Numbered from the stretch's first letter, positions 5,001 to 30,570 are shown. The stretch: DNA of 31,015 bases from an uncultured Elusimicrobia bacterium (GCA_964618085.1 CAZTZW010000002.1:9918-40932); one strand, 5' to 3'. The notes: generated by a model not told the origin, from the letters alone. Made by a program: numbers and translations.

Positions 5001-8000
5001 GTGGACGCGGAGGCGCCGGTCGTCGCGACCCGGATGGACCAGGTCGTCGAGGAGGTCAGCGGCGTCACGCCGAAGGTCCAGTTCCCCTGGAACAGGGTCT
5101 GCGCGGCCGGCACTGCGGCGGCGGAGTCGGCCGGGAAGTTGAGCGCGACCGTCGGCATCACGGCGACGGGGTTGGTGTCCTGCGACGAACCCGTGTTGTC
5201 GGTGACCGGGTTGTAGAACTGGTCCACGAGCCAGACGTCGGCGTTCATCGAACCCGCGGGGAAGGTCATGACGAACGCCGAGGCCGTGCCGTCCTTGCCG
5301 GGCGCCCCCTCCAGCGGGCCCAGCAGGCGGCACACCGCGCCGGGCAAATGGTCGCACTTGCCGGGGCGGTAAGTCTCGCCGGGCACGGTCACGAACAGGC
5401 CCACGGCCGTCGACGCGTACACCTTGAAGGCTCCCGTCACCGCGGCCGGGGACTCGGCGCGGCAGATGTTGGACGGCGTGTTGCCCGTGCAGACCAGGTC
5501 GGCGGGCTGGCCGCGCACGCCCGCGGTCAGGCGGGCGCCCGTCGTCTTCGTGACGAGGGTCATCCCGGCCGGCAAGGTGCCGCCCGCCAGGGGCCCGGTC
5601 GCGGAATCGACGTCGAACTCGTCGTTGCTGGTCAGGTGCACGAACGGGAAGCCGCCCGCGCTCGTCGGGTTCATGTAGCGGTCGACGAGGTTGATGGTCG
5701 CCGTGAAGGGCGCGCCGGCCGTGCGCGTGGAGATGGTCCCCGTGACGCCGCCGTTGGGGTAGTCGCCGCCGCCGGGGACGGCCGTCTGGCCGGGCATGAG
5801 GACCTGCAGGCCCATGGGCAGGTCGGGGACGACGGTGAACGTGGACGACTGCGGGTCGGTGGACAGGCCCGAGGAGCCGTAGTCCACGGCCGACAGGAAG
5901 TGGTCCGTCGCCGCGCGGCGCAGGGTCACGGTCATGGGCGGGGTGATGCCCGCCAGCGGGTTGATGCCGAGCGTGGAGACGAACAGGGCGAACCCGTCGC
6001 TGGGCGTGTTGATCTTCACGTCCGCGGCGCGGCCGGTGACGATGTTGAAGAAGGCGTCCACGACGCCGACCTGGACGGAGAAGGACGCGCCCGCCTGCTG
6101 CGGGGTCGCGACGCCGCTCTTGCCGGTCGGCGAGCCCTGGCTGAAGGACTCGCCCGGCAGGCGGGTCAGCAGGCGCGTGGGCACGCCGGGCAGGACGTTG
6201 ACCGCCGTCGCGGTGTCCTGCGCGACCACGGGGCCGAAGGGCGGGACGGCGTTGACCATCTCCGCGCGCAGCAGAGTGGAGCCGGCGCGCTTGAGCGTGA
6301 CGTTGTAGGTGGCCGAAGTCGTGATGACCTGCGTCGTCGGGACGATGACGGCGAAGGGGTCGTCGGCCACGAGGCGGATCTCCTGGCTGGCGCCCGGCGT
6401 GAGGTTCCAGAAGGCGTCGGTCAGGTCCACCGTCGCGTCGAAGGCGACGCCGGCCAAGGTCGTGTAGGCCGAGCCCGTGCGGCCGTTGGTCGTGGAGCCG
6501 GGAACGCGGGTCTCCAGCGGGGTGAGCGCGCGCAGGCGCGTGGTGCTGTTGGGGTTGAGCGGCAAGGCGCCGGAGACCCCCGCCACGAGCGCGGGCGCGC
6601 CCGCGTCGGCGTCGGTCGCCGTCAGCACGCGCGAGCCGGCCGTGCGCAGGATGAGGTTCGGAGCGCTCGCCGCGCCGCCGACCATCGCGAAGGAGCCCAG
6701 AGACGAGGCGAACGGGTCGTCGGAGGTCAGCGCGATGGCGGACTGGGTGACGCTGTTGACGACGTTGTAGCGCACGTCGGTCGCGTAGATGGTCGGCGTG
6801 AAGAACACGCCGGCCGTGGAGATGGCGGCGGGCCCGCCCACGCCGAAAGGCGCGATGTTCTTGCCGGGGACGAGGACCTGGCCGGGCAGGAGCACGATCA
6901 TCCGGTCGGGAGCGTTCGGGATGACGGAGACGCCCGTGACCGTCAGGCTGCTCAAGAAGGGCGGCACGACGCCGTCGTCGGCCGCGGTGACCGTCAGGTT
7001 GCCGGTGGCGGCGCTGGGCAGGAAGCCGCTGAAGACGGTCTGGCCGAGCGCCAGGGGCTGCTGGGCCGGGACCGTCGCGTAGACGTCGTTGACGTCCAGG
7101 CGCACGGGGCGGCCGTCCACCGCGCGGTTGTTGTACAGGTCCACCGCGCGCGCGGTGACGCTGTAGGTCTGGCCCGCGGTGAGGACGCTGGGCGTCCCGC
7201 TCTTGCCGGCGACGGTACCCTCGACGAAGGACTCACCCGGCATCAGGGTCAGCAGCGAGACGGGGACGTTGGCGTCGACCTGGATGCCCGTGACCGTGTC
7301 CGTGCTGTAGGACGTGCCGGTGGCGCCCGTGTCAGAGGCCCGGACCTGCAGGCCCGCGTTGCGCGTGACGGGCGGGAAAGTGAACGTGGTCGTGCCGGCC
7401 ACCAAGGTCCGCTGGTAGGGGTTCGGCGCCAGCAGGCGGCCTTGGATGTTCGCGTCGTTGAGGAAGTCGAAGCGGACCAGCGGCATGACGATGTTGCTCG
7501 GGAGCGGGATGAAGGGCGTCGTGCCGCGCACGACGTTGAAGTAGGCGTCGGTGAGGTTGATGCGGATGGACGTCGTCACGCCCGCCGTGAGCGTGGCCGG
7601 GGCCGCGACGGAGCGGCCGCCGGACGTCGGATCGGCGTCGAAGGGCGAGCGGCCGGGCGCCGCGACCTGGCCCTCGGCGACGGCCTGGAGCTTGACGGGC
7701 GTGGACCACCACACCTCGAAGGAGTTGGGCGTGACGTAGAACGAGGTCCCGGCGGCCAGCGCCGCGGCCTGCACCTGGATGCTGTGAGTCCCCGCGACGA
7801 CGGGATGGAAGGCGAAGTCCGTCACGCCGAGCGTGAGCGACTGCGTGTAGGACGAGCTGTACAGGTCGGGGAAGATGTCGGCCTGGACGGGGAAGGACAC
7901 CGACAGGTCGTCGTTGAAGAAGTCGTCGACCGCGTGGACCCGCACCGTGTAGGTGGAGCCGGCGAAGGTCTGGTTGGGCGCGCCGCTCTTGCCGAGCGGC

Positions 8001-11000
8001 TGCACGTTGAACTTGCCCTGCACGCGGGTCTCTCCGGGCAGGACGGCCACGAGCCGCGTGGCCGGCAGGCCGACCACCGGCACGGGGCTGGCCGGGTTCG
8101 AGGCGTTGGGGAAGACGCCCGCGCCCGTGGACTGGACGACCTGGCCCGCGGGGCTGGCGGTCACGAAGGTCCAGTTGAACGTGGTCGAGCCAGTGAAGGA
8201 CACGAAGCGGTCGTTGCCGGGGGCGAAGGCGCCGTTGTTCGGGTCGCCGTCCGACACGTACACCGTGGCGGCCGAATCCATGTACACGTTGTAGAAGTTG
8301 TCGGTGACCTGGACGCAGTACTGGACGGTCTGGCCGGCGACGAAGGTGCGCGGCGTCCCCAGGCGGCCCTCGGAGCCCGGCGTCACGACGCCGGGGCCGG
8401 GGCGCTGGCCGGGGCCGCCCGTGCAGCTGGCGTCCGCGTCCGCGATGAGCTGGACGCGCGTGGCCGCGTCGCGGTGGGTGGTGAAGTTGAGCGTGCCGAA
8501 CAGGGCGGGGTTGTCGGTCTGCTCGATGCGCAGCACGCGGGCGCCCGCGCGCCGCATGCGCAGCGTGAAGGTCTTAGAACCGTTGTCGTTGCCGGGGCCG
8601 GTCGTGAAGGTGTAGGTCGAGGGCAGGCCGTACACGCTGTCGGCGATGAAGTCGGTGTCCATCGTCTCGGGACCGCCGGCCATGGCGAAGTTGACGGACT
8701 GGTTGTAGTTGGAGGCGACGCCGCCCGTGCCGTTCAAGCCGTCGCGCGCGGTGACCGTGATCTGGATGTCGTTGCCGACGGTGGACGGGTCGGAGGAGAC
8801 GACGATGGAGAAGCTCTGGGCGATGCCCGAGATGAAGTAGCGGGGACCTGCGCTGACGACGCTTTGCAAGGTGCCCGCGTTGTCGCGCACGCGCGACCAG
8901 GTCACGTAGGGGTCGCCGCGCACCCAGCACGGGATGCCCGTGGGGTTGGGCGTCGGGCAGACCAGGCCGGAGTACTGCCAGCCGCCGAAGGAGTCGGCGA
9001 ACGACGCGGGCACCCACACCGGCGTGCCGGCGACCGCGGGGACCCAGGTGGAGCCGTTCCAGAAGTAGCCGGAGCCGTCGTTGCCGCCGGGCGCGATGGG
9101 ACCGCCCGAGATGAGCGGGGCGGTGTCGCGGAACACGGCGACCTCGACGGCGCCCTGGTGCCAGCCCAGGGTCGGGAACACGCCGGAACCCGTGCCGTTG
9201 ATGCCGGAGGTGAAGCCCGGGTCGGAGGAGCTGCCGACGAGGATCTTGGTGTCGTCGTAGGTCGTCAGGTTGACCGGGTTGGCCACCGCCGACGTGGGCT
9301 CGGCCGTGTCGAAGAGGAAGCGCGCGAAGCCGGAGGCGGTCTGGCGGTTGCCGACGCTGTCGGTGGCCGAGGAGCGCACGACGTAGTGGCGCGAGGGCGC
9401 GTAGGCCAGAGAGCCGTTGGTGAACGTCCACGAGGACGGGAAGAGGTTCAGGGGCAGGACGGGCATCCACACCTGCGGACCGGCGACGAAGCTCGTGCCG
9501 TCGAACCAGCGCGAGGTCTCCTCCTCGAAGATGGAGACCGCGACGGCCGACACCGAGCTCTCGGCGTCGACCGAGGTGCCCGAGAGCACGGTGAGGCTGT
9601 TGTAGGCCGAGTCGGGGATGGGCGCGACGGGCCCCGAGAGCGGCGGCACGTTGTCGAAGCGGAAGGTGCGCGTGGACAGAGCGGTCTGGACGTTGCCGGC
9701 CTCGTCGACGGCCTGGGTGATGATGTTGAACGTCTTGCCGTTGAGGCCGTCGTGCGTGCCCTCTTTCCAGGCGTAGTTGAGGGTGCCCGGCGTCGCGAAG
9801 TCCGGCACCTGGGTCGAGTTGTAGTCCCACGGGTTGTTGACGCCGAAGGGGCCGCCCGAGCCGTTGATGGAGAAGAAGCCGCCGTCGACGAGGCCCCAGT
9901 GAGGCGGCGCCGGGCTCCAGTAGTAGGTCGTCGGGCCCGTGACGTACCACATCTTGACGCGCACGTCCGCGACGTTGGAGGTGATGTCCGAGGACGTGCC
10001 CTGGATGGACGTCATCGACGAGAAGGTCTGGCCGTTGGCGGTCGGATACGTCACCACGGACGCCGGGCGGGTCGCGTCGAAGCTGAACGTGGAGGAGGCG
10101 CTGGTGTAGTTGCCCGCCGCGTCCGTCACGCGGCTCTCGACGCGGAGCTGCCCGTTGTTGTCGGCCCACGCCACCGCTGAGGCGTTGTAGCGCCACGTGT
10201 AGGCGTTGCCGTCGCCGATGCCGCCGACGGCGGTCTGAGAGTCCAACGCCACGTTCCACAGCTCCGGGAAGCCCGGGAAGCCGCTGCTGACCCACCCCGT
10301 CCCGTCCACCCAGTACTGGTTGAGCGCGATGTTGTAGATGCGGACCTGCGGGAAGGTGGTCAGGCCCGGCGCGGCGTCCTGCGCGGTGCCGGAGACCAAG
10401 GGCAGCGAGCTGTAGCGGGCCCCGTTGGCGGGCAGCTGGACGAAGGCCGTCGGCGAGGACACGTCGAAGCGGAAGATGTTGGTCGTCAGCGCCGTCTGGG
10501 TGTTGGCGGCGAAGTCGAAGGCGCGCGACGCGAGGTCGTAGCGCTCGCCGTCCTGCAGGCCGCCGGGCAGGTTGTTGGGCGGCGGCAGCTGGGTGTTCTT
10601 GGTCCACGGAGAGCCGGTGACGGGCGTCAGCCAAGACGCCTCGGTCGAGCAGTTCGCGATCCAGGTCGCGCCGTTCCAGCAGATGTTGTCGCTGACGCGC
10701 TTGATCTGGAGCTGGGTCCCGGCCACGCCCGCGGGCGCGCCGCCGGCGTCGACGGCGGTGCCGCTGACGAGCGCCAACGCCTTGCCGTACGAGGAGGCCC
10801 CGGGCGCGCTCACGCCGGAACCCGGCGCCGTGGTGTCCCACTTCACGGTGTTGGCGGAGCCGACGCCCTCGAGCCCGGTGGAGCCGATGGCCTTGGGCAC
10901 GATGTTGTAGTCGCGGCCGGCGGAGGCGGGCAGGACGGGCGGGGTCGCCGTGAACGTGTAGTTGGGCACGGTGCCCGAGAGGACGGTCGGGCGCCACACG

Positions 11001-14000
11001 GGCGACGTCGCCGAGAAGGTTCCGGAGATGTGGCTGTACCACATGCCCGAGTCCGCCTCCTGGTAGGCGACCGAGGCGGCGGCCACGCCGAAGGTCTCCG
11101 AGGCGGTGCCCGCGATGCCGAACGCGACCGAGCGGTTGCCGCCCGTCGCGGGCAAGGACGGCGGCGAGGTCAGGGCGACGGCGGGCAGGCTGGTGTTGAA
11201 CGAGAACGTCGTCGTCGAGATCTGGCCGGCCGAGCTGACGTTGGCGGCGGGCACGGCATTATCGCGCGCGCGCACCCACACGCGATATGTATATTGCGTC
11301 GTCAACGCGGGCGCGTCCATGTCCCAGACGCCGCCGGCGAAAGTGCCGTTGCGTCCGCCGCTCGCGATGGGGTAGTAGATGGGGCAGCCCGTGAGCGTGA
11401 ACGTGCCGGGCGTGACGCTGCCGTCCCAGCAGCCCTGGCCCGGGCTCATCTCTCCGATGGCCACGTCGATCTGAGAGGCCGCGGAGACGCCCGCCAGGGC
11501 GTCCACGGCCGTGCCGCGGATCTTCGCGAGGGTGGCGAGCACCGAGCCGTCGGACGGCGCCTGGAAGCCCACGTTCGGGCCGACGAGGTCGACGGTGAAG
11601 GTGGAGGCGCGCGCCGGAGTGAAGAAGGGCTCCGCGTTGCCGCCCGAGAAGGAGTCGTCGAGGCCCGACGTCGTCGCGTAGTAGGACGCGCCGTGCTGGA
11701 GGCCCGTGGGCAGGTTGTTGGCCGCGGGCAGGTTGGTGACGAGGGTCCAGCTCGTCTGATGGACCTGGATTCCCTCGTTCTCGGTCATCTGAGCCGCGCC
11801 CGCGACCCAGCTGGCGCTGTCCCAGCGGAAGCCGTCGGAGAGGCGCACCAACTGTAGGCGGACGTCGTCCACCAGGCCCGGCAGGGAGCCGGCCACGTCG
11901 TTGGCCGTGCCCGACATGCTCGAGAGAGAGGAGATGGTGCTGACGTTGACCGGCAGGCGCACGTCGGTCACCGGCGGGTCGGTGTCGAAGATGACGGTCT
12001 GCGAGGAGTAGGTCGTCGAGTAGTTGCCGGACTGGTTGCGCGCGCGCGCCTCGATGCGGTACTGCGTGCCGCTCTGGAAGGGCGTGCCGCTGGAGAGCGT
12101 CCACGAAGTCCACAGCGGGACGGACGCCGAGGCAGCCTGCAGCCACGCGGTCTCGGCCGGGATGGGGTTCGGCTGGATGTCGAAGAAGCCCGAGCCGGCG
12201 TTGTAGTAGCGGGTCAGGCCGGTCTGCTGGAGGATGCGGACCTCCACCTGGCCGAGCGCCGTCGGCACGGCGTCGGCGGCCGTGCCGGAGATGGTGGTCA
12301 GCGAGCGGTGGCGCGTCTGGTTCGGGAAAGTGACGCCGACCGTGGGCACGGCCGTGTTGTAGACGAAGGTCACCGAGCTGACGGCCGGCGTGAAGACCGC
12401 CTGCTCGTTGCCCGCGTTGTCCGTCGCGCGCGCCGCGACGATGTAGCTGACGCCGCTCGTGTACGGGTTCGGGTTGGCGGTGAACGTCCAGGCGCCGACC
12501 GCCCCCCCCGCCGGGATGAAGTTGGGGCAGGGCGCCGAGAAGCCGCCGCCGTACACGTAGCAGAGGTTCGTGCCCAGTCTTTGGATCGACACCGACACCG
12601 TGGAGACGCCGGTGGCCGACAGCGGCCCGATCCCATCCGGGTCGGGGTCGGAGGAGCCGCCGGTCACGGCGAAGTTCACGCCCTTGAAGCCGCCCTGGAC
12701 GGGGTCGGAGACGGTCGCCGCGGGGAGCGAGGAGTCGAAGGTGAAGGCGAAGTCCTGCGCGCGCGAGTTGCCGGCGCGGTCGGTGGCCGAGGAGCGCAGG
12801 ACGTAGGCCTGGCCGTTGGTCAGCGCGGGGTAGACCCAGCCCCAGACATCGGGACCGAAGGAGTAGGCGCTGGTGGAGAAGTACGTCTCCAGACCGCCGT
12901 TGAAGGACGTCCCGTTGTACCAGCCGCCCGCGCCGGCCGCCGAGGAGACGGCCAGCCGCAGAGTGCCGATGCCCGACGGGGCGTCGAGCGCGGTGCCCGA
13001 GATGGAGGCCAGCAGGGGGCTCAGGGCGCCCGCGGAGACGGGCGCGTCGACCGCGGCCGTCGGCACCACGACGTCGTAGGTGAACGAGGTCGAGGAGACC
13101 ACGGTCTGCGCCACCGCGGCGAGGTCGGTCGCCGAGGAGTGGAAGACATAGACGTGCGCCTGGGTCCAGGGCTGGACGCCGAAGGTGAAGTTCCACGTCG
13201 CCGTCGAGCCCTTGGCGCCGAACCAGGCGGGACAGGCCGCGGTGAAGTTGTTGAGGGCGGAGTCGTAACAGTTGGGCGAGGCGATGGACGTATTTTGGAC
13301 CGACAGCTGGACGGTCGACACCGCCACGTTATCGCTCGACACGCCCGAGACGACCGCCATGGAGTTGCGGAAGACGCCCGGGAGCGGGAAGAGGACCGCG
13401 GCGTAGCCCGGGGTCACGTCGTAGGTGAAGGTGGAGCCTCGCGGCGAGTCGAAGAGCTCGGCATTACCCCCGCCCGCGGCGTTGTCGAGGCCCGAGGACG
13501 TCAGATAGTAGGACGTGCCGGAGGTCAGGTCGGCGGGGGTCGGGCGGTTGATGCCGGCCATGCTCCAGGTCGGCACCGACGGCGTCACGCCTTGGGCGGC
13601 GGCCAACGTCTGCGGGACGGGGCCGGGCTGCCAGGCGCCGGCGCCCGGCGCGCCGTCCCAGTAGGCGCCGTCGGAGAGGCGCTTGAAGCGCAGGCGCATC
13701 GTCGGGACCAGGCCCGGGTTGCCGACGGGCAGGTCCGACACGGTGCCGCCGAGGGCGGAGAGGCTGTTGATGACGGACGCGTGGGCGGGCGTCGTCACGC
13801 CGCTCTGGGGCGCGAGGTTGTCGTAGACCACGACCACGCTCGAGTACGGGACCGCGTAGGTGCCCGCGCCGTTCTCCGAGCGCGCGACCACGGTGTAGGT
13901 GCCGCCGTTGACGTAGGGCACGGCGCTCGACGCCGTCCAGTTGATCCACGAGCCCGCGTGCGTCGCGTCGAACCACGCCAGGTCGCCGTCGGGCTGGTTG

Positions 14001-17000
14001 AAGGACAGGCCCGAAGCGGGGTTGGCGAACTGGCCCCCGGCTTCGCTGAACACGCGCAGCTGCACCTTGCGCACCGTGTTGGGCGCCGTGGCCGAGGCCG
14101 TGCCGGCGATGCTCGCCAACGTGAGCTGGCCGTGGCGCGCGGGCGGGTTCACCGGCGCGGTGATGCCCACGAGCGGGCGCGACGAGTCGTAGCCGAAGGT
14201 GATGGGCGCCGCGGGGATCTCCGTGTTGCCCGAGGCCGCGCCTTGGGCCCGGTCCTCGGCGAAGACGTCGAGCGAGTAGGTCAGCCCGTCCATCCAGGTC
14301 AAGGTCGGCGTGCTCGACTGGTACGTCCAAGTGTTGGAGCCCGGGAGGTAGACGGCGGTGCTCGCGGTGACGCCGACGACCCAGGTGCTGGTCAGGTGGT
14401 CCCAGTAGAAGTTGTTATCGAGGCGGCGCAGGCGGAAGCGCACGCCGTTGGGGTCCTTGATGCCCGCGCCCACCGCCCCCGCCCCGACGCTCAGGAAGTC
14501 CGTCGAGCCGCCGCGCAGCACCGGGTGGGTCGACACGAAGGTCGTGTTGACCGGGAAGCTCACCGAGGAGGTCGGCGAGGACAGGTCGATGTAGAAGTTC
14601 ACCTGCTGGGGCGCCAGCTCGTCGATGCCCGCCAGGTTGACGCCCGTGGTCTTGACGGTGAAGGTGGTGTTGTTGACCGTGCTCCAGGTCGGCAGGACCT
14701 CGCCGGCCGGCGGGTAGCCCCAGTTGCCGGCGACCGGGAGGACCACGCGGGTGTTCGTGCTGTCGTCGACGCCGCAGCCCACCCAGCCGTGGCCCGTCGT
14801 GCCGCCGCCCCAGCACTGGTTGGTGTCGAGGCGCTTGATCTGGAACTTGACCGAGATGGTGTTGACGTTGGCCGTGCCCTGCATGCCGGCGAGCTGGTTG
14901 TATCGCGTGAGGCTGACGGGGACCGAGACGGCCGTGACCGCGGGCGGCGGCTGGAACTGGAGGCGGCGGCGGCCGGGCGTGCCCGCCACGGGCGTCGGCG
15001 TCTGCACGTTGCCCGCGTTGTCCACGGCGCTCGAGATCATGGTGTAGAAGGACAGGTTGCGCAGGTTGGTGTCGATGGACGGCGAGGAGAAGGCCCACTC
15101 GCCGGTGCCCGCGTTGTACACGGCGGGGTTCCAGATGGGCGGACCGCCCGGCGTCGCCCAGCTGCCGGCGGACTCGTTCCAGTAGCTGTTGGCGTTGGGG
15201 TCGCCGGGGTTGGTGTCGTTGTTCCAGATGCTCAGGTAGGTGAAGCGCACCGCCGAGGACGACGCGTTGACGAGCGCGTCGGACGCCGTGCCGGTGATGG
15301 AGGCCAAGGACGTCGTCGTCGTGTCGTCGGGGCCGGCCGGGAAGGTCACGCCCGAGGTCGGCGTGGTGCCGTCGAAGGTGATGGTCGTGACCGCGGTGAA
15401 GTAGTTCGGGAAGGCGCCGGCGTTGCCGGCCTGGTCGGTGGCGGCCACACGCACGACGTACTGGCGGCCGTTGGGCGAGAGGTCGCCGCGCGTGAACGAG
15501 GGCGCGACGGCGGAGGCGCCGGTGCCGGAGGGAAGGCCGGTGATGACCCACGAGCTCTGGTAGGCCGTCGCGGCGATGTTGACGGGGACGGACTGCCAGG
15601 ATGAGCCGTTGTACCAGCGGCAGGAGCCGCCGCACAGCGGGACGGCGTGGGGCGGCGTCGCGAGGTCGGAGACGTCCTCGATCTGGACGAGCACCTGCGC
15701 CAAGCCGGACGGGATGTTGCCGCCGACCAGCGGCTCGGTGAAGGAGCCGGAGGACACGCTCAAGGTGTTCGTGCTGACGTACGGGCGGTCCGGGCGCAGG
15801 ATGGTGGCCGTGGGCGTCGAGCGGTCCATGATGAAGGTCGTCGTGGAATACGTCGCGTCGGTGAAGGAGAACTGGTCGCGGGCGCGCGCCACGACGCGGT
15901 AGCGGTAGCCGTCCGCGAAGGCGCCCTCGGGCAGGTTCGCGGGCTGGCTCTGGAAGGGCGTGATGGTCTGCGCGCCGCCGAGCAAGGTCGTGGGGATGAC
16001 GAAGCCGGGGTTCGCGGCGAACCAGCCGATGCCGTCCCAGTACTCGCGGAAAGCGACCGAGTTCTCGCGAGACACGGACAGCTGTACCTGTGCCATGCCG
16101 ATGCCCTGGGTGCCCGCGGTGCTCTGGTCGTCGGCGGTGCCGGCGATGGGCGTGGCGCCGCCCACCAATGCGGAGTTGTTCGTGGGATGGGTGAAACCCG
16201 ACACGGGCGCGAAGTAGTCGATGCGCAGGTCGTTGCCGGGCGTCAGAGGCTCGGTCCCCGCACGGTTCTGGTTGCCCGCGCCGTCGATGCCGCGAACGTA
16301 GAACGTGTACGTGCGCGGCTGGGCGCGCGAGGCGATATCGGCCGAGAGGGCCGCGTCGGTGAACGACCATGAGGACGTGTGGACCTGCGTCGGACGCCAT
16401 GACGCGCCGCCGAAGGGCGCGAAGGCCGCGCCGTTCCACCAGTTCAACGTCAAGTTCTCGCGCACCGCGACGTACATCTGGACGAGACCCGAGGTGGCTT
16501 CGGCATAGGTCCCGGAGGAGAGGACGAAGGCCGTCGCGTAGCTGTCGTCGATGGGCGTCGAGATGGTCGTCGTAGGCGCCTGCGCGTCGTAGGTGAACGA
16601 GTAGACGATCTCAGGATTCTCGACGTTGCCGGTGTTGTCCACGGAGCGCAGGCGCACGGTGTACTGGACGGTGTCCTGCCAGGACGGAAGGACGTCGCCG
16701 GCCGGGTTGGACGGCGGGTACTGCCAGGCCGCGGGATCGGCCGTGGTCGTGGACACGCGACGGTAGTTGATCACCGGCGTGAACACCGTCGAGCCGTCCC
16801 AGTAGTCGCCGTCGGGCTCGCGGATGGCGATCTCGACGCGGTTCAGGCCCGACTTGACGCCGAGGCCGGTGACCCAGTCCACGGCCGTGCCGGACAGAGT
16901 CGTGGGCTGGCCCAGCGGGTAGAAGGCCTGGCTCGGGACCAGGATGGTGGTCGAGGGCTTATTGACGTCGTACTTGAAGCTGACGACGGGGGTCACGCCG

Positions 17001-20000
17001 CTGACGTTGCCGGCGGTGTCGGTGGCGATCGCGGTGAGCAGGTACTGTTTGTTGTCGATCCACGTCGGCGAGACGAAGGTCCAGGGGTTGGTGCCGCTGG
17101 TGATGAGGAAGGTCGAGCCGGCGACCACCCACGACGTGCCGTTCCACTTCAGGTTGTCTGTGGTGTCCTCGATCTGCACCAACACGCGCGCGGTACCGCC
17201 GGGCGCGTCGGTGGAGCCGCCCAGGAAGGAGGTCAGCGGGCGGCCCGCGCCGTAATCGGGCATGGACACCATCGGCGTCGAGATAGTCACCACGGGACCG
17301 ACACGGTCCAAGGTGACCTGGACGGTCGCCGGAGTCTCGAGATTGCCGGCGTTATCGCGCGCCTGGATGGCCACCCCGTACACCGTGCCGTCGGCCTCCG
17401 TGATGGTAGGCGCGGACTGGCCGGGCAAGGTGCCGGGATAGGTCCACGCCACGGTGCCGGTAGAGCCTGATAGCTGGACGGGCAGCTGGGTCTGAACGTT
17501 GGCGAGGCCCCAGCTGGAGCCGGTCCAATAGTGGCTGGACGCGCCGACGACGTACCACGCTCGCAGGTAGTAGGCGCTCGCCTGGGACAACGCCGCGTTC
17601 GACGTGCCCGAGAGCGCGTTCAGGTTCTGGATGAAGGCGCCGGGCGCCGGAGTGACGACCGCCGAGACGGGCGGAGTGTCGTCGACGACGAAAGAGACCT
17701 GGCTCACCGGAGAGGCGAAGGTCGACCCCAGGTTGCCCACGACGGCCCCGCTCGCGTTGCGGGCGTTGTCGCGGGCGCGGGTCTTGGCGTAGTACTGGCG
17801 GTCGCCGATCCAGTCCAAGGAGTCGAAGAACAGGCGCCAGGAGTCCGTACCGGTCGCGACGCGCCACTCGGAGCTCTCCACCGTGTTGGAGGAGAACTTC
17901 GTGCCGTTGGAGCCGATGACGCCGGTGTAGTAGTAGCTCGTGCCGCCGAGCAGGTACCAGATGACGGTGTTGACGTTCTGCAGGGCGTCGTTGGAGGGAT
18001 ACAGCGCGGCCTCGGAGTCCACGGCGGTGCCGGTCAGCGCCGAGCCGCCGGTCAGGTCCGAGGACTTGTAGGACTGGCCGTTGGCGGGCTTGATGAAGCC
18101 GGCCAGGGGCGCGGCCTTGTCGATGGACAGAGTGCGGCTGGAGAGGGGCGAGGAGAACTGGCCCTGGATGTTGCCCGCGAAGTCGAGCGCGCGCACGGTG
18201 ATGCGGTAGCCGCGGCCCGACTCGAGCGCGCCGGTGAGCGCGGGGTTCGAGTAGGTCCAGGGGCCGGTGCCGACGACCGCGTTGAAGGACGAGAGGCTCT
18301 GGTTGAAGTCCGAGCCGGTGTCCGACCAGTACTGGTCGTTGTGCGGCTCGTAGATCTCGAGCTCGACCTTGCGGACGTCGGACTTGCGGTTGCTGCCGTA
18401 GACGCCGTCGGGGTCGAAGGAGGTGCCGGAGATGACGCTCAGGTCCAGGTACACCTGGCCGGAGGACGGCGAGACGAGCAGGCCGACGGGCGTCGAGGTG
18501 TCGTAGACGAAGGTGAAGTTCGCCATCGAGGCCTCGACGGTCTGGTCGTTGAGGGCCTTGTCCGCCGCGTGGGCGTAGACGGTGTAGTCCACGCCGTCCT
18601 GGAGGGCGGGGCCCGCCAAGGTCGTGGTGCTGAACGTGAACAAGGTCGTCCCGGCGAAGGAGCCGGGGCCGAACTCGAAGGCGCCGACCTGGAAGGCCGT
18701 CCCGTTCCAGTAGCGGTTGGCGGGATTGTCCTTGAGGCGGAACTTGACGCCGGTCTGCGCGACCGACTGAGCCACCACCGCGCCCGGGTCGGTCGCGGTG
18801 CCGGCCAGGACGGGCAAGGAATTCAAGCAGGCGCCCGCGCCCGCGCAGGGAGTGCCCGAGGGCGAGGTCACGACCGTCACGAGCGTGACGCGGTCGAAGA
18901 CGAAGGTGCGCGAATCGGTGTTGCCCGGGATGCCCGAGGCGTTGATGGCCGTGGCCGCGACGCTGTAGGAGGCGTTGTCCACGTGGTAGGCGGAGGTGAT
19001 GGACCGGCTCCAGTTCTGGGGCGTGCCCGCCACGACGTTGATGTTGTTGATGGAAGGCGCGCTGCCCCAGGACGTCGTCCCCTCGGTCCAGTAGCTGGCC
19101 GGCGGCGTCAGACGCTGGAGGACGAGCTCGACGCCGTTGGCCAGACGCATGTTCGAGCCGTTGCCGATGATGGTGTTGACCGTGCCGGCCGAGTTCGGGC
19201 CGTAGTGCTGCAGGTCCGGCGCCGGGGGCTGGGTGAGCGCCAACGTCGCGTCGGGCGACTGGAGGTAGAACTGGATGTCGAAGAGGCCGTGCGCCGACTC
19301 GACGTTGCCGATGACGTCCACCGCGCGCGCGGTGACGGTGTAGGTGGAGCGGTTGTCCCAGGCGGTGGTCGTCGCGTCATAGACCCACTGGCGCACGCCC
19401 GGCGAGACCACGGCGCCGATCACGCCCGAGGAGATCTCGATGGGCGCGCCCTGCCAAGCCGAGCCGTTCCAGTAATCGCCGATGTTACAGGTGCCGCCCG
19501 AGCAGGCGGTCTCCTGGATGGTCAGGCGCACGACGGAAAGCTGGCCCGGGTTCGCGTCGGAGGCCGTGCCGTAGATGGCGGTCGCGCCCGCGTTGAAGCC
19601 CGTCGGGGCGGTCGCAATGGACACGGGCGCCGTGGTGTCGAAGACGAAGGTGTTGGTGGTGAGCACGACCTCCTGGTTGTCCGCGCGGTCCTTGGAGCGC
19701 GAGACCACCTTGTACACGCGGTTGCTGGTGAGCGCGCCCGCCGACAACGGGAAGGTCCAGGTGCCGGAGGACGAGCCGGTGAACACCGCGGTGGACCAGA
19801 CGGGCACGCCCGAGGCGAAGGAGGTCCCGGTCCACCACGTGGTCGTCACATTGATCTCGGCGACGGCGATGGTGACGCTGGAGTTCTGGAAGCCGGCCTC
19901 GAAGGAGCGCGTACCCGGCGCGCACAAGCCGCCGTTGAAGAAGCAGAAGCGGTCGTCGGCGGTGCCCACGATGGTCACGATGGAGGAGCTCACGAACGCG

Positions 20001-23000
20001 CCGTCGTGCGGCCAGTTCACCCGCGAGGCGGGCGTCGTGAGATCGACCACGAAGGTGTAGGTCGAGTAGGCCGTCTCGACGTTGGTCGCCGCGTCGAAGC
20101 TCTGGGAGTTCACGTCGTAGCGATAGCCGTCCGCGAACGCGCCGACGAAGGCGGTGAAGGTCCAGGGGTTGAGGCCCGAACGGCTGTTGTTAAGGAAACC
20201 GGGGTCGGCGCCCCACGCGCCGCCGAACAGGTTCCAGTACTGGCCGTCGGACCGGCGGACCTTCAGACGCACGTCGTTGACGCCGCTGGGGTTGAACGCG
20301 ACGGGCTCATCCACGGCCGTGCCGGTGATAGTGGCCGGCGCGGACTGACTGTACGCCGGCGGGTAGGTCACGCGCGAAAGGGGCGTAGTGTTGTCGTAGT
20401 TGAAGACGAGCGCCGGGCTGCCGTCGGCGTTCAAGTTGGCGTCGAGCTGGCCGTTGCTCGGCGTCGCGCTGGTATTGCCCGCGCGATCGGTCGCGCGCAC
20501 CCAGACGCGGAAGGCGCGCGAGTCGGCGTTGGTCAACGGCGGGAAAGCCTGGCTCCAGCTCGTCAGGCCGGTCACGCCGCGCCACTGCGCATGCTTGGTC
20601 GGCGACGTGTCCCAGTCGGTGGCGATGTTGCCGGTCACCGAGCCGTTCCAGTAGCTCTGGTCGTCCTGCAACTTGAGCAATATCTGAACGGTCTGAAGGC
20701 CCGAAGCGCCGGTGGTCTCGTCGTTGGCCGTGCCGAGCAAGGAACCCAGCGCGACCGCGTTCAGGTACACGGAGTTCACAGGCGAGGTGATGGCCGCCGT
20801 CGGGACCTGGGTGTCGTAGCGGAACGCGGCGCCCGCGCCCGCGACCGCGGGGTTCTGCTGGATGTTGGTCGCGTTGTCGAGCGCGACGGTCACGGCGCGG
20901 TAGGTCGCGCTCGATTCGAGCATGCCCACGGGAACGGCGGTCGACCACGCCAGCGCGGTGACGCCCTGGAGCGAGGTGCTCGAGACCTGCGTCCATGCGG
21001 AACTCGGGGGCGCCGGGGGCGGATCGGAGATGCCGGTGTCGAAGGCGCCGGTGCCCCAGTTCCACCAGCCGATGGGAGCGGAACCGCCGTCGTTGTGGCG
21101 CACGGCGAGGTAGGCGCGCTGTATGCCCGAAACGCCGGACCCGGTCTCGACGTACTGGCCCGAGAACGTCGTCAGCGCGTTGAGATTAGCGGCGTTGGCC
21201 GGGACCGCGACCGTCGACGTCGGGTTGCTGATGTCGTACTTGAAGGCCTGAGTCTGACCCGCGGCGGAGGCTCCCGGCAGCATGCCCAACGAGAAGTTGA
21301 CGGTGTTGCTGGCCACATCGCGCGCGTACACGAACACGGAGAAGTTGACGCCGTCGCCGCCGGCGTTGAGCTGGGTCTCCAGCTGCGGTACCGAGTAATC
21401 CCAGGTGTTCTGGCCCGCGCGGTACACCTGGCTCGACCAGTGGATGGTGGACAGGCTCACCGAGAAGGAGCGAGAGGCGTCGCTCCACCACATGTTCTGG
21501 GCCGCGCCGGAGGAGATGGCGACCCAGACCTCGCGCACGCCCGAGGGGACTACGCCCGCGTCGCCGACCGTGCCCCACGTATGAGTGCTGAAGCGGGTCG
21601 AGTCGGGATTGTTGGAGTAGGGCGGCAGAGCGGGCGGCGCCGCCGGGAAGGAGACGGTCAAGGAGGGCGCGACGCTGTCGTAGCGGAAGGTGTGGTCGCC
21701 GCCGCCGGGCGCCGAGCGCACGTTGCCCGCGCGGTCGACGACGCGCACGAAAAGACGGTACTGCTGGTCGTTGCCGAACGCGCCGGCCAAGTCGCTGTAG
21801 GTCCAAGACTGAAGGCCGAAGGTACCGCCGACGGCGGCGGTGGAGTAGTGGTCGTTGAGGGCGGTCCACGAGGAACCCGTCCAGTCCTCGTCCGGCCCCC
21901 CCGCCGTACGCTGGATGCGCAACTCCACGCGGGAGATGCCCGCGAGGTCGCCGTCCGCCGTGCCTGCGATCGAACCCAGGGCCGAGACGTTGGCGCCCAA
22001 GGGAGCGGTCAGACCCGTCGTTGGAATCGTATCGTCCACGACGAAGTCCACGATGTCGGTGCCCACGGTGGCGGGCACGCTCACGTTGCCGGAGACGGTG
22101 CCGTCCTTAAGGAACGAGGCGTCCTCGGCACGGCTCTCCAGACGGTACTGCGTGTCCGCCGAGCGCCAGGTGACGGCGCCGATAGAGCTCCAAAGCGTAT
22201 CGGTAGCCGGGAACCAGCCGGAGTTGGACACCCCCGTGCCCGAGGAGAACACGGTGCCCTGCCAATACCAAGTGTCACCAGCGACGTAGGAGAGGCGGAT
22301 GTCCACACGGCGCAGACCGGAGTTGAAGGGCGCGCCCGGGTCCGTCGCGGTGCCCGCGAACGGATTGGACACGCCGGAGAGCTGCGAGCCACGGTAAGCG
22401 TTGCCGTGCCCCGGCAAGGTGATGACGGTGGTCGGCGGCACCGCGTCCACGAGGAAGGTGCGAGAGGACACGCTCGCGACGAAGGACGTCTGCCCGTTTC
22501 CGGCCACGTCGACGGCGCGCGAGAGAACGGTGTAGTAGGTGCTGAAAGTGGCCAGCGCGGCGTTGAGGTTCGCGTCGGTCAGGCTCCAATCGGCCGCAGG
22601 CGTGCTCGAGGTCGCGAGCCAGAACGGACAGGTCTCGGTGAAGAACAGGGTGCCCGGGTTGTAGCAGAGGCCGTTGCGCAGGGAGCGCACCGACGCGCTG
22701 ATGGCGTGCACCGAGAACGTGTCGTTGGCCGTACCCGAGACCTGCGGTGAGCCCAAGGTCCGCAGGGGCGTGGAGCCGTTGGGCAAGGTGATGCCCGAAG
22801 TGGGCGCGGTCACGTCCCAGGTGAACGGGCGGTTGATGGTCGTGCCGTTGCCGGCGCGGTCGCGCGCGACGAGGATGGCGGTGTAGGCGCGGTCCGCCTC
22901 GAAGGCCGTGGAGTCGGTGAAGCTCGCGTGCGTGACCGCATAGGTGTTGGCCGGCAGAGCGCCGACGTTGGGCGTGAGACAGGTGGCATCGGTCGTCGTG

Positions 23001-26000
23001 ATGCAGTCCGCCGCCGAGGCCGTGTAGGTGGAGACCGTGGGGTTCCAGTACTGCACGCCCACCTCGACGCGGGAGAGGCGGAAGTAGACGGTCTTCTGCG
23101 CGCCCGTGAGCGCGTCCGCGCCGTCGACGGCCGTCCCCGATAGCGCCGCCAGCGAGCGCTTGAACGCGACGTCGGGCATGGTCACGGCGGCCAGCGGCGC
23201 CGCGTCGTCGATGTAGTAGTCGCGCGGACCTTTGGGAGGAGCCTCAGGACCCGGCGTCGCGCGCGACTCGAGCTGGTATTTATTGAGGCTCGTGTAGCTC
23301 GCCGGCAAGATCGTATGCGCCCAACTGCGACCCGCCAGCGGAGTCGAAATCCAGATATTGAGCGCTCCCGCCTGCCAGACCGCTCCGTCCCAGGTGAGCG
23401 GGGCGCCGGTGACGTCCTGGATGCGCACTTCGACCCCGGACGCGGCGTCGTTGACCGTACCGGACAGCGTGGCCAGGTTGGAACGGAAGTGCGGCGTCGT
23501 GGCATCGGGCTTCTGGATGAGAGAGGCCGGCGACGGGGCGGTGAAGGCCACCCGGCTGGTGTTGGGCCCGGCGACCGAGACGCGGTCCTCGACGTTGGAA
23601 GCGTAGTCATCGGCCGCGGCCATGATATGGTAGGAGACGCCCGCGACGAACGACGGCGTCGAGGCTCCGGTCACGAACCAGTTCGCGGGGTTGCCGTTGT
23701 CCGAGGACGCCGCCACCCAGTAGTTGGACGCCGCGCCGGGGACGTCGGGCGGCACGGACGCGTCGGGTAGGTCGAAGAGCTTGGTGGCCTTGTTCCACCA
23801 GTTCGCAGGAGAAGGCCGGTAATAGGCGACGTAGATGCTGCGCAGGCCGGAAAGGCCGGTATCCTGCGAGGTGCCCGAGAGGGTGGCCAGCGAGTCCGGG
23901 GTGGTACCATGGACCGGGAAGGTCACCACCGACGCCGGTTTAGTGAAGTCGGCGGAGAAGGCGATGGTCGAGTACGAGACCTGCATCCCCGTCGCGCGAT
24001 CGATGGCGCGCGCGTGCGCCTCATAGCTCAGGCCCGAGGTCCACGCGGCCGAGCTCAAGGTGAACGACCAGGGACCCGAGCCCGTCACGCTCGAATTGTT
24101 CCAGATCTCGGGGCCGCCCGCGACCCAGGAGCCGTTGGGCCCGGCCGAAAGGTTCAGGTAGAAGCCGTCCGAGAGGCGGCGCACGCGCACCTGCACGACG
24201 TCCACGATGCCCGCGCCCGTGTCGACCGCGTTGCCCGAGACGAGTCCCGCCTGCGAGATGAAACCTCCGTTGGCCGGCGAGGTGATCGTGGCCGTGGGCC
24301 GGTAGGTATCGTAGACGAAGGCGGCCGTGGACCAAGAGACGACGGAGGCGTTTCCGGCCTGGTCCACGGCCTGCGAGCGCATGTCGTAGCCGAGGTTGTC
24401 CGTCCACTCGGCGGCAGGCGGCATGCTGAAGCTCCAGTCCTCGCTGTCCTCATCGTAGAGGCCGTCCTGCGCCGCAGCGTTGGGCCAGGGATTGGGCTCG
24501 GTGCCGGACCAGGCCAGACCGGTCCAGTAGCTGGTGGTCGGCGGCGTGAAGCGGCGCAGGCTCACCCGCACCGCGGCGAGGCGTCCGCCGGTGTTGTCCA
24601 CGGAGGAGCCCGTCGCGAAGGTGAACGTCGAGCGCGTATGCAGACCGGCGGACGGGGCGGAGATGGCCGCGGAGGGACGCTCCGGGGTGGGTTGGTACTC
24701 GTCCAGGGTGAAAGTCACCGTGGACGGCATCACCTGGACCGACCCCGTCCAGTCCTTAGCACGGACCACGACACGGAAGACTTCACCGGAGTTACCCGCT
24801 ATGAAAGGAACCGCTAGGGACCAGGTGCCGCTGGAGAGGCCCGTGTGCGGCGTGTAGGTGACGGAGCGCCAGAAATCGGGCTCCATCGCAGGATCGGCGA
24901 TACCGGCCTCTTCGTCGCTCGACACCCAGCCGCTCGTGTTCCAGTTCCACGTCTGATCGAGACCCTGGCGGTAGACGTGCACGTAGACGTTCGACACCCG
25001 ACCGCCGTTGAGACCGGAGCCGAGGTCGGAGGCCGTGCCCGTGAGCGTCGCGAGCGCGCTGACGAAAGAGCCGTTCGTCAGATTGGTGAAGGCCGCGGTC
25101 GGGCGGTCGACGTCGAAGAACACGGGCGTGACCTGGGCGCCCGTCCCCGCGACCCCCGGCGAAGACTGGCCGGTCTCGTTGGTTGCGAAGTCGCGGATGC
25201 GGGTGCTCAGCTCATAGCGGATGCCGTTGGTCCACGCCACGCCCGAGCTGTTGTAAGCCCACAGGCCGTCCGAGGCGCTGTCTGCGAGGAGGAACCAGAT
25301 GGGGCTGCCCGAGGGGTTGAACTGATTGGCGCCACCCGCGACGCCGTTGGGGTCCCAGTAAAGCGAAGTGCCTTCGCGGCGTATGAAGATCTCGGCTTGA
25401 TTGGGCAGGCCCGAGTTGGCGTCGGACGCCGTTCCCGAGATGGAGTTGATGGATGTCACCGCCGTACCGCTGGAAGGCACCGCGATGTTGCCCAGCGGCG
25501 CGGTCACGTCCCAGGTGAAGATGCGCGGCGTCCCCTCGGCGACGTTGCCCACCGAGTCGCGCGCGCGCGGGATGATCTCGTAGTCGCGCGCGTCCACGAA
25601 GCCGATGGCGCCAGGGACCGTATAGGACCACGGCGAGCCCTGGACCGTGGTCGGCGTGTAGGTGGCGAAGGAGACCCAGGCGCTGGTGAAGCCGCTCCAC
25701 CACCGGCAGCCCACCGCGGGCGAGCCGCCGGCGCAGGAACCGCCGGGGCTGCTGGCGATGGCCACCTCGGTGAGCGCGAGGGCGGAGAAGTCGGAGGCGG
25801 TACCCGAGATGGTGGGCAGGCGGTTGATCTGGCTCTGATTGGGCGTGGTCACCGCCGATAGAGGATTGACGGCGTCCACGCTGAAGGTGACCGAGTTGAT
25901 GCCGACCGTGAAGCCGGCCTCGACGTTAGAGAGCTTGGTCCCGCTGGCGCAGTCGGTGTCGGCCGTATCGCCGCCGCGGTCGCAGGCGCGCGTGTAAAGC

Positions 26001-29000
26001 ACGTAGGAGATTCCCGAATCGCCCACGGTGAACGCCGGACTGGTGAAGGTCCACGAGCTGGGATTCAGGGTCGCGTCGGGCCAGTTGGCGGGCTGTGCGC
26101 CCCAGGCCGCGCCGCCCAGCCAGAACAGACCGTCGGATTGTCGCTGGATCTGGTACTCCACGCGGTTGACGCCGGCGTGCTTATCGTAATAGCCGCCGGC
26201 GAACGTCGTCGCGCCGGGACCGAGTGTGTTCAAGTGAACTGGATGGGTGATGCTGTTGGTCGGTTTGACCACGTCCCAGAAGAAGGTGTGGGAGCTGATG
26301 AGCGGACCGTTGAAATTGTGCTCATGGGAGAAGAGACTGTTGTTCGCATCGCGAGCACGATCGCGGGCAGTCACCCGTAATGTGAACGAGGAGCCGCTGA
26401 TCTCGTCATCGGTCCAAGGGGTAGGACCACCGAGGGAGTTGGCGGCCCAATCCACGTCGTTGAACCCCAGCTCCCATGCCTGCGAAAAGATCTCCGTCGG
26501 ATCGGCGAAGGTCGTGTTCTTTGGCACGCGGCTGTCGAGCGCGTTGATGGCCGTCGCCACGGCGCCCCAACTCGCGCCGTTCCAGTACAGATTGTCCTTG
26601 TGACGGTAGATGCGTAGGCGGACGCCCTCGAGAAAGCCGTTGCTGTTGTCGGTCGCGGTACCCTGGATGAGAGTCAAGGTCGTGCGCGTGGAGAGGGCGA
26701 TGGGAACGGAGGCTCCCGCCGTAGGCGTGGTGTTATCCACGCGGAAGGTGCGGTCGGTCGAGGTCAAGGTCAGGTTGCCCGCGGCATCCTCTGCGATGGC
26801 GGACAGCGCGATGCGCGCGTTGTTGAACAGGCCGGAGTTGAACGCGTAGGTCCAGCTATTGCCCCCCGTCGCGTTGATCCAGAACGGACAGCCCTGGTCG
26901 AACGTCGTGCCGCTCCAGCAATTATTGGTGCCGAGATCGCGCAAGGAGACCGAGCTGACCTTCACCGGGAAAGAATCGAGGGAAGTACCCACGACCTGGG
27001 TGAATCCACGGTAGACGCCTTCGTTCACGCTCGGCAGGCTGATGCTGACGACCGGAGTCGTCTCGTCCACGACGAAGGCGTTAGTGGTGCCGCCGACGCG
27101 CCAATTGCCCGCTTTGTCGGCCACCTGGAGAGAGAAGTAGTAGGTCGCGCCGTCGCTCCAGGCGCTCACTGGAAAGGTGGAGCGCCATGCGCCGGTGCCA
27201 GAGTTCCAACAGGTCAGGCCGCAAGACACCGTGGAGAAGTACACGCCGGTGCCGCCCCACGTCTCGGAGGCGCGGTTCCAGTATTCGGTGGTGCCCGAGA
27301 TGATGCGGCGCAGCTGGAAGTTGAGGTTCTGGACCTGACCGGGAGAGATGTCCCCCGCGGTACCCGACAACGTCGTGAGCTGGAAAGCGCGGTAGTAGCC
27401 CGAGAAGGTCGGCGCGTTGAGGTTCACGGGATGAGTGACCGCTCCCGTAGGATTCTGCGTGTCGAAGACGAAGTCGGCCGTGGTAGGGGTGCCTTGCACG
27501 TTGCCCGTATTGTCGACGGCTCGCACGCGCACGCGGTACTGGCGCGTCGTCGTCCAGATGGCGCCCAGACCCGTTATCTGCCATGGATTGGCGCCGGTCG
27601 CCGGATTCCATATCTGCCCGACCTGCCAGGCGCCGCCGGCCACGTTGCGGTACTGATTGTTCGAGAGATCCTGGATCTCCACTTCGACGCGGGCGGTCTC
27701 GGAGACGTTGTTGCCGATCCCGTCCGAGGAAGTGCCGGTGATGGTCGTCAGCGCGGCGTAATGGTCGTTATGGACCGGGAGTTCGACGTAGGCGGTCGGC
27801 TCGGTGAAGTCGCGGGTATAGGCGATGGAGAAGCCCTCGCCCGCGTACAAGTTCGTCGCCCAAGGGAAACCGCCGTACACTGTCGGTTGGAACGCCGAGT
27901 CGAAGGTCGCGCCGTTCCAGCGGTAGATCCGCAGCTGCCGGGCGGTATTAAGGACCGTGACGAACATCTCATCGATGGCCGGATCGAGCGGGTTGCTGAC
28001 GATGCTCACCGCCCGGGGCGCACCGACGTTGTCGGCGGTGGTGACTTCTCCCGCCCAGGCCGTGCCGTTGAAAGTGTTGTAGCGGATATTGTTGCTGCCG
28101 TCGGCGTAGGCGAGCAGGAGCTGGCCGCCGGATCGCTCGTAGGCCAGATCGAAAGGACGGTAAGCGGAATTGACGGAAACGACAGCACCTTCCAGGCCGA
28201 TATTGGTGTTGCCCCAAGTATCGTTGGCGCCGTTGAAGATGGTGACGTTGAGATCGTTCGAGTTGTCCTCGACGCCGAGCGCGATGAGCTGGCTGGTCGG
28301 ATTGCCGGCCAGTTTGACCCAGCGCGGAAGCTCGTTGCCGCCATCGGAGAGGTCGGGTCCGATGAGGGCGGCCGACCAAGAGGTCATGCTCGCGTACCAG
28401 ACGGCATAATAAGGAGTGTTCTGCGTGACCGGGGCGTTGGGACCCCAGGTCAGCAGGCCTTTGACGCCCGCCGAGGTCCAGGCCACGTCGAACACCTGGG
28501 TCCGGTTCTCGAGCGTACCCGCTTGGGACAGAGCGGTCTCGAACGTGGTGACCGCGCTCCAGCCGGTGCCGGTCCAATGAGCCGCGAACAAGTCGTCGTT
28601 GGAGTCCTGAACGACGAGGAGGATGGAGTTGGAATCCCGATTGGGGCTGGGCTCCAGGCGGACGAAGACGGGGGTACCGGTGCCGGGCCAGGCCGGCACG
28701 GCGATGGCCGTGCTCCAAGACGCGGCGCCATCGGCGCGCGTACGGTACTGCGGGGTGGCGCTGCCATTGGAGTAGACGATGAGCGAGTCACCGGTGGAGG
28801 TCTCGTAGGCGGCCTCGGCCGCCTTGAAGACGTTGTAGCGCGCCGCGACGTCCAGACCGACGGTATGCTCGAAAGCCGCGGCCCAGCTCGTTCCGTTCCA
28901 GATCGCCGTGTTCACGTCGCCGTTGTTATCGACGAAAGTCGCCAACTTCTCGTTACGGCGAGGACTGGCGCGCAGGCTCACTTGGTACGGCGCGCCCCCG

Positions 29001-30553: not shown

Positions 30554-30570
30554 CGCTTAGCGCCCCCCCG
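30550..30570 (-). promoter_or_regulatory. ATGA stop/start overlap (translational coupling) with an upstream G-rich SD-like tract
   Basis: The minus strand reads CGGGGGGGCGCTAAGCGATGAGG. The TGA of the HEAT gene overlaps the ATG of the giant gene by 4 nt, and a G7 tract lies 10-16 nt upstream of the ATG. Confidence 0.75.

Follow-up and report, generated by a model that had tools for sequence, protein, structure and literature searches.

A faint 11-domain period in the Ig-like stalk of a giant Elusimicrobiota protein and its probable origin by unequal recombination

The stretch of DNA analysed here (the window; 31,015 nucleotides (nt) from an uncultured Elusimicrobia bacterium, GCA_964618085.1, CAZTZW010000002.1:9918-40932) is nearly filled by a single minus-strand open reading frame (ORF) with an ATG at 30553 (G+C content about 70%). 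The giant ORF runs off the left edge of the window, which holds 10,184 amino acids (aa) of its product. The predicted protein contains a stalk of 49 divergent immunoglobulin (Ig)-like domains, R1 to R49, in which an earlier note, made from the sequence alone, had proposed a super-repeat of 11 domains. Our analysis confirmed the 11-domain period, which corresponds to about 1,430 aa or 4.3 kb, but showed that it is faint in this genome and dominated by one pair of 11-domain blocks.

The left edge of the window (positions 1-10) adjoins a scaffold gap of 10 N inside the gene (source contig G000:C2, G000 being the genome studied here). Past the gap the giant gene resumes in a different frame and encodes another 1,726 aa on the minus strand (L009:4736-9916). 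A FlgD_ig domain (34 bits, cut-off 27) closes this downstream part, which has the tail NYPNPF...IRKIGVIH in common with the intact orthologues. Based on the continuation beyond the gap and the shared tail, the full protein comprises about 11,900 aa, comparable to the 11,867 aa of the orthologue in genome G006; the apparent frame of 10,336 aa was rejected as an artefact of the gap. The window probably covers the greater part of the gene for a secreted surface fibre of this length from an Elusimicrobiota bacterium, and the nearest RpoB sequences (65-75% identity) come from Elusimicrobia bins. From the N- to the C-terminus the protein consists of a leader, a Trp-rich head, the 49 Ig-like domains, a second repeat family and a C-terminal domain resembling FlgD-Ig and the C-terminal domain (CTD) of the type IX secretion system (T9SS). 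In the fibre the head is presumably located distally.

For the segmentation of the stalk a hidden Markov model (HMM) was built from 38 self-delimited copies of the domain. It recovers all 49 domains, which measure 109-169 aa each and meet at boundaries with the pattern F-x-[FYW]-D-x-x-x-P. According to the HMM the domains R1, R12, R23 and R34 start at aa 915 (nt 27811), aa 2338 (nt 23542), aa 3765 (nt 19261) and aa 5202 (nt 14950), respectively. The repeat numbering of the earlier note is identical to that of the HMM and its starts are right (R34 had been placed at nt 14953), as are the spacings of 4269, 4281 and 4308 nt given for these domains (4269, 4281 and about 4310 nt by the HMM).

Searches of Pfam and NCBIfam revealed no family for the head or the stalk, the stalk giving only sub-threshold Pfam matches to Big_3_3 and Ig_GEX2_N, and a search for loci related to the head returned no match. 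An AlphaFold2 model of R20-R21, for which an alignment of 39 tandem pairs was used, predicts two beta-sandwiches with a predicted local distance difference test (pLDDT) value of 82 and a predicted template modelling score (pTM) of 0.73. In a Foldseek search with this model the best two-domain matches were the bacterial Ig-like (BIg) domains of SiiE (2yn3, 2yn5) with template modelling (TM) scores of 0.49-0.52. The extender of an RTX adhesin (6xi1) was also matched, and overall the matches were generic Ig folds and bacterial BIg domains.

About 43 of the 49 domains have kept a triad of Asp residues (HMM columns 1, 30 and 101) consisting of the Asp of the boundary motif, the Asp of G-T-A-x-D and the Asp of A-x-D-x-A-G-N, which is also present in the orthologues. 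The domains R12, R23, R34 and R44 keep at most one Asp of the triad, and R36 and R41 lose two. This Asp-poor pattern is identical in every orthologue seen. The domains R12, R23 and R34, which had been described as atypical in the earlier note, indeed have the lowest HMM scores within R1-R35 (36, 19 and 27 bits compared to typically 60-85 bits). In all three the Asp of G-T-x-x-D is replaced by Asn, which is invariant in 4 species, and the linkers preceding them are Pro-rich (…TAPSP…, …LQSP…QPPAP… and …QPPP…, respectively).

By analogy with the extenders of SiiE and MpIBP the Asp triad probably acts as a Ca2+ clamp that stiffens the junctions between the domains, and the Asp-poor junctions might accordingly represent different, possibly flexible, joints. 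In an AlphaFold2 model of R22-R23 the junction between the two domains has a pLDDT of about 53 compared to 84-92 at the junction of R20 and R21, a difference that is confounded by the shallower alignment of 12 sequences. The features of the window are compiled in Table 1.

Table 1. Position of the giant ORF and of its parts in the window
Feature	Position (nt)	Strand	Remarks
Giant ORF	2..30553	-	10,184 aa within the window, continues beyond the gap
Leader and Trp-rich head	27812..30553	-	leader about aa 1-28, hydrophobic and signal-like as judged by eye; head about 885 aa (27812-30466)
Stalk, 49 divergent Ig-like domains, R1-R49	8804..27811	-	aa 915-7250; HMM segmentation
Block A, R1-R11	23543..27811	-	only weakly similar to block B at lag 11 (R2/R13, R3/R14, R8/R19)
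Block B, R12-R22	19262..23542	-	in-register partner of block C
Block C, R23-R33	14951..19261	-	faster-evolving copy
R12	23210..23542	-	junction Asp and Asp of A-x-D-x-AGN lost; Pro-rich linker from R11
R23	18896..19261	-	all three Asp lost; still a predicted beta-sandwich
R34	14588..14950	-	all three Asp lost; opens a partial fourth unit
R36-40 / R41-45, younger 5-domain duplication	10466..14188	-	includes the Asp-poor R44 (nt 10838-11197)
Second repeat family	2054..8803	-	about 120 aa each, aa 7251 to about 9500; outside the super-repeat

A quantitative similarity matrix, which the earlier note had named as the refuting test, upheld the period: in the 49x49 matrix of the stalk domains lag 11 is the only significant lag. 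A Smith-Waterman matrix of the single sequences, which covered the 1,176 possible pairs and in which row and column means had been corrected for, gave z=3.9 for lag 11 (family-wise p=0.014, 5,000 permutations of the domain order). A second matrix was calculated with hhalign from one profile per position, each built from 4-5 orthologues, and showed a sharper peak (z=4.3 over the 49 domains, z=6.1 within R1-35; family-wise p<0.01). For nine domains, compared to 1.6 expected, the best partner is located 11 positions away. The match columns show an overall identity of 24.4%, which rises to 26.2% at lag 11 and to 28.2% in the comparison of R12-22 with R23-33.

The main source of the lag-11 signal is this pair of blocks, B and C (z=6.1, p<5e-5). 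The comparison of R1-11 with R12-22 gave p values of about 0.04-0.07, and the remaining block pairs, including that of block C with the following one (C-D), were not significant. Block C diverges faster among orthologues than the blocks A and B (mean score to the orthologue in G014 364, compared to 433-464), which suggests an asymmetric divergence after duplication; the weaker signal between A and C fits this faster evolution. At the DNA level no super-repeat is left, since Tandem Repeats Finder detected nothing and a general repeat search returned short stretches of conserved motifs only. The autocorrelation of domain lengths at lag 11 (z=1.4-1.7) was not significant after correction.

The period is also visible in individual motifs listed in the earlier note, each of which proved to be exact as quoted. 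The sequence GAFADGYRY occurs in R20 and R31 only, with 25 of 27 nt identical, the pattern [NYKR]F[QR]L has exactly four matches in the 10,184 aa, located in R2, R13, R24 and R35, and the GTVSGNV / GAVVGNL hairpin is restricted to R15 and R26. Two further motifs are less specific: the C...CP loop is present in R3 and R14 but also off-period in R38, R40 and R43, and VAG[PT]...F..P is found in R11 and R33 but has similar strings in R7 and R49. A phylogeny of the repeats, which had been suggested as a check, places the lag-11 partners 3/14, 15/26, 16/27 and 20/31 as sisters, and derived features shared at the same lag are, besides the motifs, the Asn that is invariant in R12, R23 and R34 and the loss of the central Asp of the triad in R16 as well as in R27. 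Within the partial fourth unit R35 resembles R24, R13 and R2, and R36 resembles R25, R14 and R3. Chains that persist over more than two units are few (2-13-24-35, 3-14-25 and 12-23-34).

Orthologues of the giant protein were found via the head in the same genus (G006, G009, G014 and G003) and in other families of the order (G028, G035 and G029). Each of the 49 domains in the protein of G006 is a strict one-to-one orthologue of a domain in the genome studied here, and 49 domains are likewise found in G009 when the gene is read across two frameshifts. In a tree of 245 domains nearly every position forms a pure clade of orthologues across the genomes, indicating that the array is old and position-specific and has not been homogenised. 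No indel was seen inside R10-R35 in the orthologues covering this region, namely G006, G009 and G014 in full, G028 with an offset of +15 and paralogous R12-16, and G003 and G029 in part.

When the phylum was searched, 45 of 401 Elusimicrobiota genomes proved to contain homologues of the head, which start ORFs of 6,000-19,358 aa. These head-bearing giant proteins are a large uncharacterised family. A protein of 7,926 aa (P0001) retrieved in the homologue search lacks stalk domains of this type and was not useful.

Several of these proteins differ by whole units of 11 domains, for which four full-length homologues (G351, G164, G360 and G172) were decisive. In G351, the protein of which has 55 domains and one 11-domain unit more than that of G000, the Asp-poor domains are 12, 23, 34 and 45, the lag-11 signal reaches z=15, and domains 10-18 and 21-29 are 44-56% identical. 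Its domains 34-44 are orthologous to R23-33, which implies that the split between the blocks B and C is older than the divergence of the order of G000 from the family of G351 within the same class. The protein of G164 (60 domains, Asp-poor domains 12, 23 and 34, lag-11 z=11.6) contains three copies of a unit formed by domains 10-20 with 52-80% identity. The lag-22 signals are weak in both G351 (z=2.2) and G164 (z=4.1).

In G035 domains 1-22 correspond to R1-22 and are followed by a second run of the B type (lag-11 z=8.2). The first copy (domains 12-16) matches R12-16 of G000 (scores 125-239) and not G028 (29-137), whereas for the second copy (domains 23-27) the match is with G028 (146-398) instead of G000 (96-125). 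The simplest reading of this pattern would be an ancestor of the order with two B-type blocks, from which the lineages of G000 and G028 each lost 11 domains in register, different copies being kept. The breakpoints of the duplicated unit are not the same throughout, as it comprises domains 10-20 in G351 and G164 and domains 12-22 in G035.

The first Asp-poor domain is domain 12 in G000, G006, G014, G035, G351, G164, G360 and G172, as well as in G009 as judged by the position of the HMM score, and the second is domain 23 in most of these; G028 is the only full-length exception for position 12. The spacings between the Asp-poor domains vary, amounting to 26/11/11 in G028, 16 in G360, 11/14/21 in G172 and 11/11/10 in the genome studied here. 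In G360, a single-contig genome with a protein of 55 domains (Asp-poor 12 and 28), the signal appears at lag 16 (11 + 5) and lag 5, and in G172 (88 domains, Asp-poor 12, 23, 37 and 58) at lag 21.

Besides the unit of 11 domains a shorter one was detected. The domains R36-40 and R41-45 form a younger duplication with hhalign scores of 130 for R36/R41 and 155 for R37/R42, the latter being 45% identical, and both pairs are sisters in the domain tree. The protein of G014 has 54 domains due to an extra copy of R36-40 (three copies of the block in all), and that of G028 has 64 domains and carries the block R5-9 four times. In G029 only one copy of the pair 36-40/41-45 is present, and 3-domain repeats occur near R3-5. 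The 5-domain repeats in G164 and G360 are up to 100% identical. The 5-domain unit (3 domains in the case of G029) evolves independently of the 11-domain unit and in the same way. Length variation of orthologues in multiples of 11 domains, suggested as a check in the earlier note, does occur, together with changes by 5 and 3 domains. A preliminary conclusion that orthologue lengths never change by 11, drawn from differences of 5 and 15 domains, turned out to be premature when wider sampling showed 11-domain changes.

The analysis thus shows the 11-domain period, Asp-poor domains that are conserved among the orthologues, the one-to-one orthology of positions and copy-number changes of 11, 5 and 3 domains. 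We consider it likely that the stalk is a higher-order repeat of period 11 which arose when paralogous 11-domain blocks recombined unequally but in register. Each unit opens with an atypical Asp-poor domain behind a Pro-rich linker (R12, R23 and R34), and unequal recombination in register would lead to the gain and loss of whole units with varying breakpoints and would still be reshaping the family. Once two 11-domain blocks were present, the period could propagate itself without any selection on the spacing. The occurrence of the same period with different breakpoints, together with whole-unit changes, is the signature expected of unequal homologous recombination, and it is from these sequence patterns that we infer the mechanism. 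In the genome studied here the duplication is very old, dating back at least to the level of the class, so that no DNA repeat is left and the surviving traces are about 4 points of extra identity and a few idiosyncratic loops in common.

Several points weigh against this interpretation. In the genome studied here the lag-11 signal drops to z=1.25 once the pair of blocks B and C is removed, and lags 22 and 33 are flat (z about 0). A fourth Asp-poor domain, R44, follows R34 after 10 instead of 11 domains and lies within the 5-domain duplication. Recombination is deduced from patterns. Furthermore, most of the homologues originate from metagenome bins, the contig of G035 ends inside the second block (at domain 30), and the 100% identical 5-domain repeats of G164 might be affected by the assembly. 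The 11-domain copies, however, are 44-80% identical and thus too divergent for assembly artefacts.

A different explanation, which appears rather unlikely to us, assumes that the spacing is kept by selection. The stalk would then be a segmented rod in which an Asp-free, Pro-linked joint before every 11th domain cuts the Ca2+-stiffened fibre into rods of about 50 nm, that is, into runs of about 10 Ca2+-clamped Ig-like domains between conserved joints that are either flexible or set at a fixed angle. Such a selection would be compatible with an origin by duplication. The Asp-poor state of R12, R23 and R34 in every orthologue seen, including the Asn invariant in 4 species, and the location of the first Asp-poor domain at 12 and mostly of the second at 23 in the full-length homologues would be in agreement with it, but both the conserved position 12 and the Asp-poor state are predicted by descent alone as well. 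The absence of indels inside R10-R35 also speaks in favour of a constraint, and so does the low pLDDT at the junction of R22 and R23, with the confounding effect of the shallower alignment mentioned above. On the other hand, the various spacings found in the family, including that before R44, are evidently tolerated. The lengths of the blocks A, B and C (1423, 1426 and 1438 aa), which might be taken as evidence for a ruler, were rejected as such since their agreement is within chance (p about 0.05) and since blocks of 9 domains are still closer to each other in length (range 4 aa). If the joints were nevertheless under selection, the fibre would represent a bacterial counterpart of the titin super-repeat which sets the mechanics or the reach of a fibre of more than 250 nm.

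The earlier note had furthermore suggested a molecular ruler, a helical pitch or sites for a periodic partner about 40 nm apart. The period might fit a partner such as an S-layer, a sheath, a neighbouring fibre or a helical bundle with docking sites about 45-50 nm apart, and the fact that each domain position keeps its identity across the genomes shows a position-specific constraint. The likeness to titin, the A-band part of which contains super-repeats of 7 and 11 domains with the period of 11 in the C-zone (PMC3859903), is a purely formal one in this respect. Only 3-4 units with 24-28% identity are present in the genome studied here, no register at lag 22 or lag 33 was seen in it, the insertions of 5 and 3 domains in relatives shift the phase relative to the head, and no candidate partner was detected among the flanking genes (HEAT-repeat proteins and a CHASE2 cyclase). 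Taking also the varying spacings into account, the suggestion is unsupported, and a titin-like ruler or docking lattice seems highly improbable.

Finally, a chance likeness among 49 related domains that was picked out afterwards could be supposed because the motif patterns were set post hoc, the excess of identity amounts to 2-4 points and the length autocorrelation is not significant, but this is refuted to near certainty by the permutation tests, significant in two independent scoring schemes, and by z=8-15 at the same period in G035, G164 and G351.

With the higher-order repeat generated by unequal recombination as the favoured interpretation, the formal analogy to a titin-type super-repeat drawn in the earlier note still holds, as there is an 11-domain unit with an atypical opening domain that recurs in homologues across the phylum. 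Like the C-zone of titin and the 7-module super-repeats of nebulin (PMC3859903), the protein is a giant chain of beta-sandwich domains in which a block of fixed order recurs (11 domains, about 1,430 aa), positions keep their identity between species, and segmental duplication is plausible in both cases. In contrast to titin, to which there is no homology, the stalk is composed of a single domain type without an Ig/Fn3 pattern, and no partner lattice is known. Moreover, the 3-4 units are paralogues of low identity, the number and spacing of the units vary, and units of 5 and 3 domains exist in addition.

Alpha-satellite arrays and the segmental duplications of nebulin and titin represent further repeats attributed to unequal crossing-over which resemble the stalk in their lag-n peak, in copy-number changes by whole units and in the presence of chimeric units. 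In the case described here, by contrast, the repeat is situated at the level of domains inside a single bacterial gene, is mostly ancient and has left no repeat at the DNA level.

The closest structural counterpart is SiiE of Salmonella enterica, which consists of 53 BIg domains and binds Ca2+ (PDB 2yn3, 2yn5). Conserved acidic residues are reportedly located at its domain junctions. Both proteins have a long array of non-identical Ig-like domains, and SiiE provided the best two-domain structural match to R20-R21, although the structure-based sequence identity is about 16%. SiiE differs in being a substrate of the type I secretion system (T1SS) without a Sec leader, and its binding end is reversed relative to the arrangement proposed here. 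The features of a T1SS substrate are not found in the protein described here, which begins with a Sec-type leader and a head and terminates in a FlgD-Ig / T9SS-like tail. We know of no 11-domain periodicity in SiiE, for which no search aimed at one was made.

A model for the possible role of the Asp triad is provided by the RII extender of MpAFP/MpIBP (PMC4083281; PDB 6xi1; about 45 A per domain), in which acidic linker residues bind Ca2+ and stiffen a rod of tandem Ig-like domains. The RII region consists of about 120 identical repeats in concerted evolution, whereas the positions of the stalk described here are individually conserved with a mean identity of 24%, and the type of secretion differs as well. 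The protein resembles the Ca2+-dependent BIg extenders of SiiE and MpIBP in its predicted fold and probably also in its mechanics.

Most accounts of giant fibrillar adhesins in bacteria depict them as monotonous rows of extender domains. The fibre described here stands apart from these in that all 49 positions keep their identity across genera and families and in that a higher-order unit is marked by a conserved odd domain. Literature searches yielded neither an earlier account of the family nor one of a bacterial adhesin with a super-repeat; the Elusimicrobia have already been noted to be rich in huge proteins (PMC11573180). As a widespread family of the Elusimicrobiota these proteins offer a natural series of gains and losses of 11, 5 and 3 domains for the study of how long repetitive genes grow, and they are suited to testing whether periodic Ca2+-free junctions act as joints. 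Even if the joints were mere historical leftovers, the family would be a clean example of the evolution of a domain-level higher-order repeat in a prokaryote.

The second repeat family, which follows the stalk, comprises about 18-20 copies with the motifs LPGE...PG...GKxG and D-x-F-[FY]-N. It is unlike the Ig-like domains and gave only a sub-threshold match to Ig_GEX2_N. In addition to FlgD_ig, the C-terminus showed weak matches to the C-terminal parts of T9SS models, and no RTX match was seen there. In a scan of the genome (82% complete) for the T9SS machinery the PorU model matched CTD-like tails only, and an SprA-like gene remained below the cut-off.

The orthologue in the 3-contig assembly of G009 (G009:C1:1932738-1970000; L017, L018) is split into three frames of 1,628, 4,910 and 6,024 aa, which could be due to indel errors of long reads or indicate a recent pseudogene. 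In the genome studied here HEAT-repeat proteins are encoded on both flanks of the giant gene (window 30550-31014; L009:3591-4670), and genes encoding a CHASE2 adenylate/guanylate cyclase and a thiolase are located further downstream. A second giant ORF of this genome, with an open frame of 6,170 aa, ends in a CTD-like tail of the same type (G000:C11:18215-18505).

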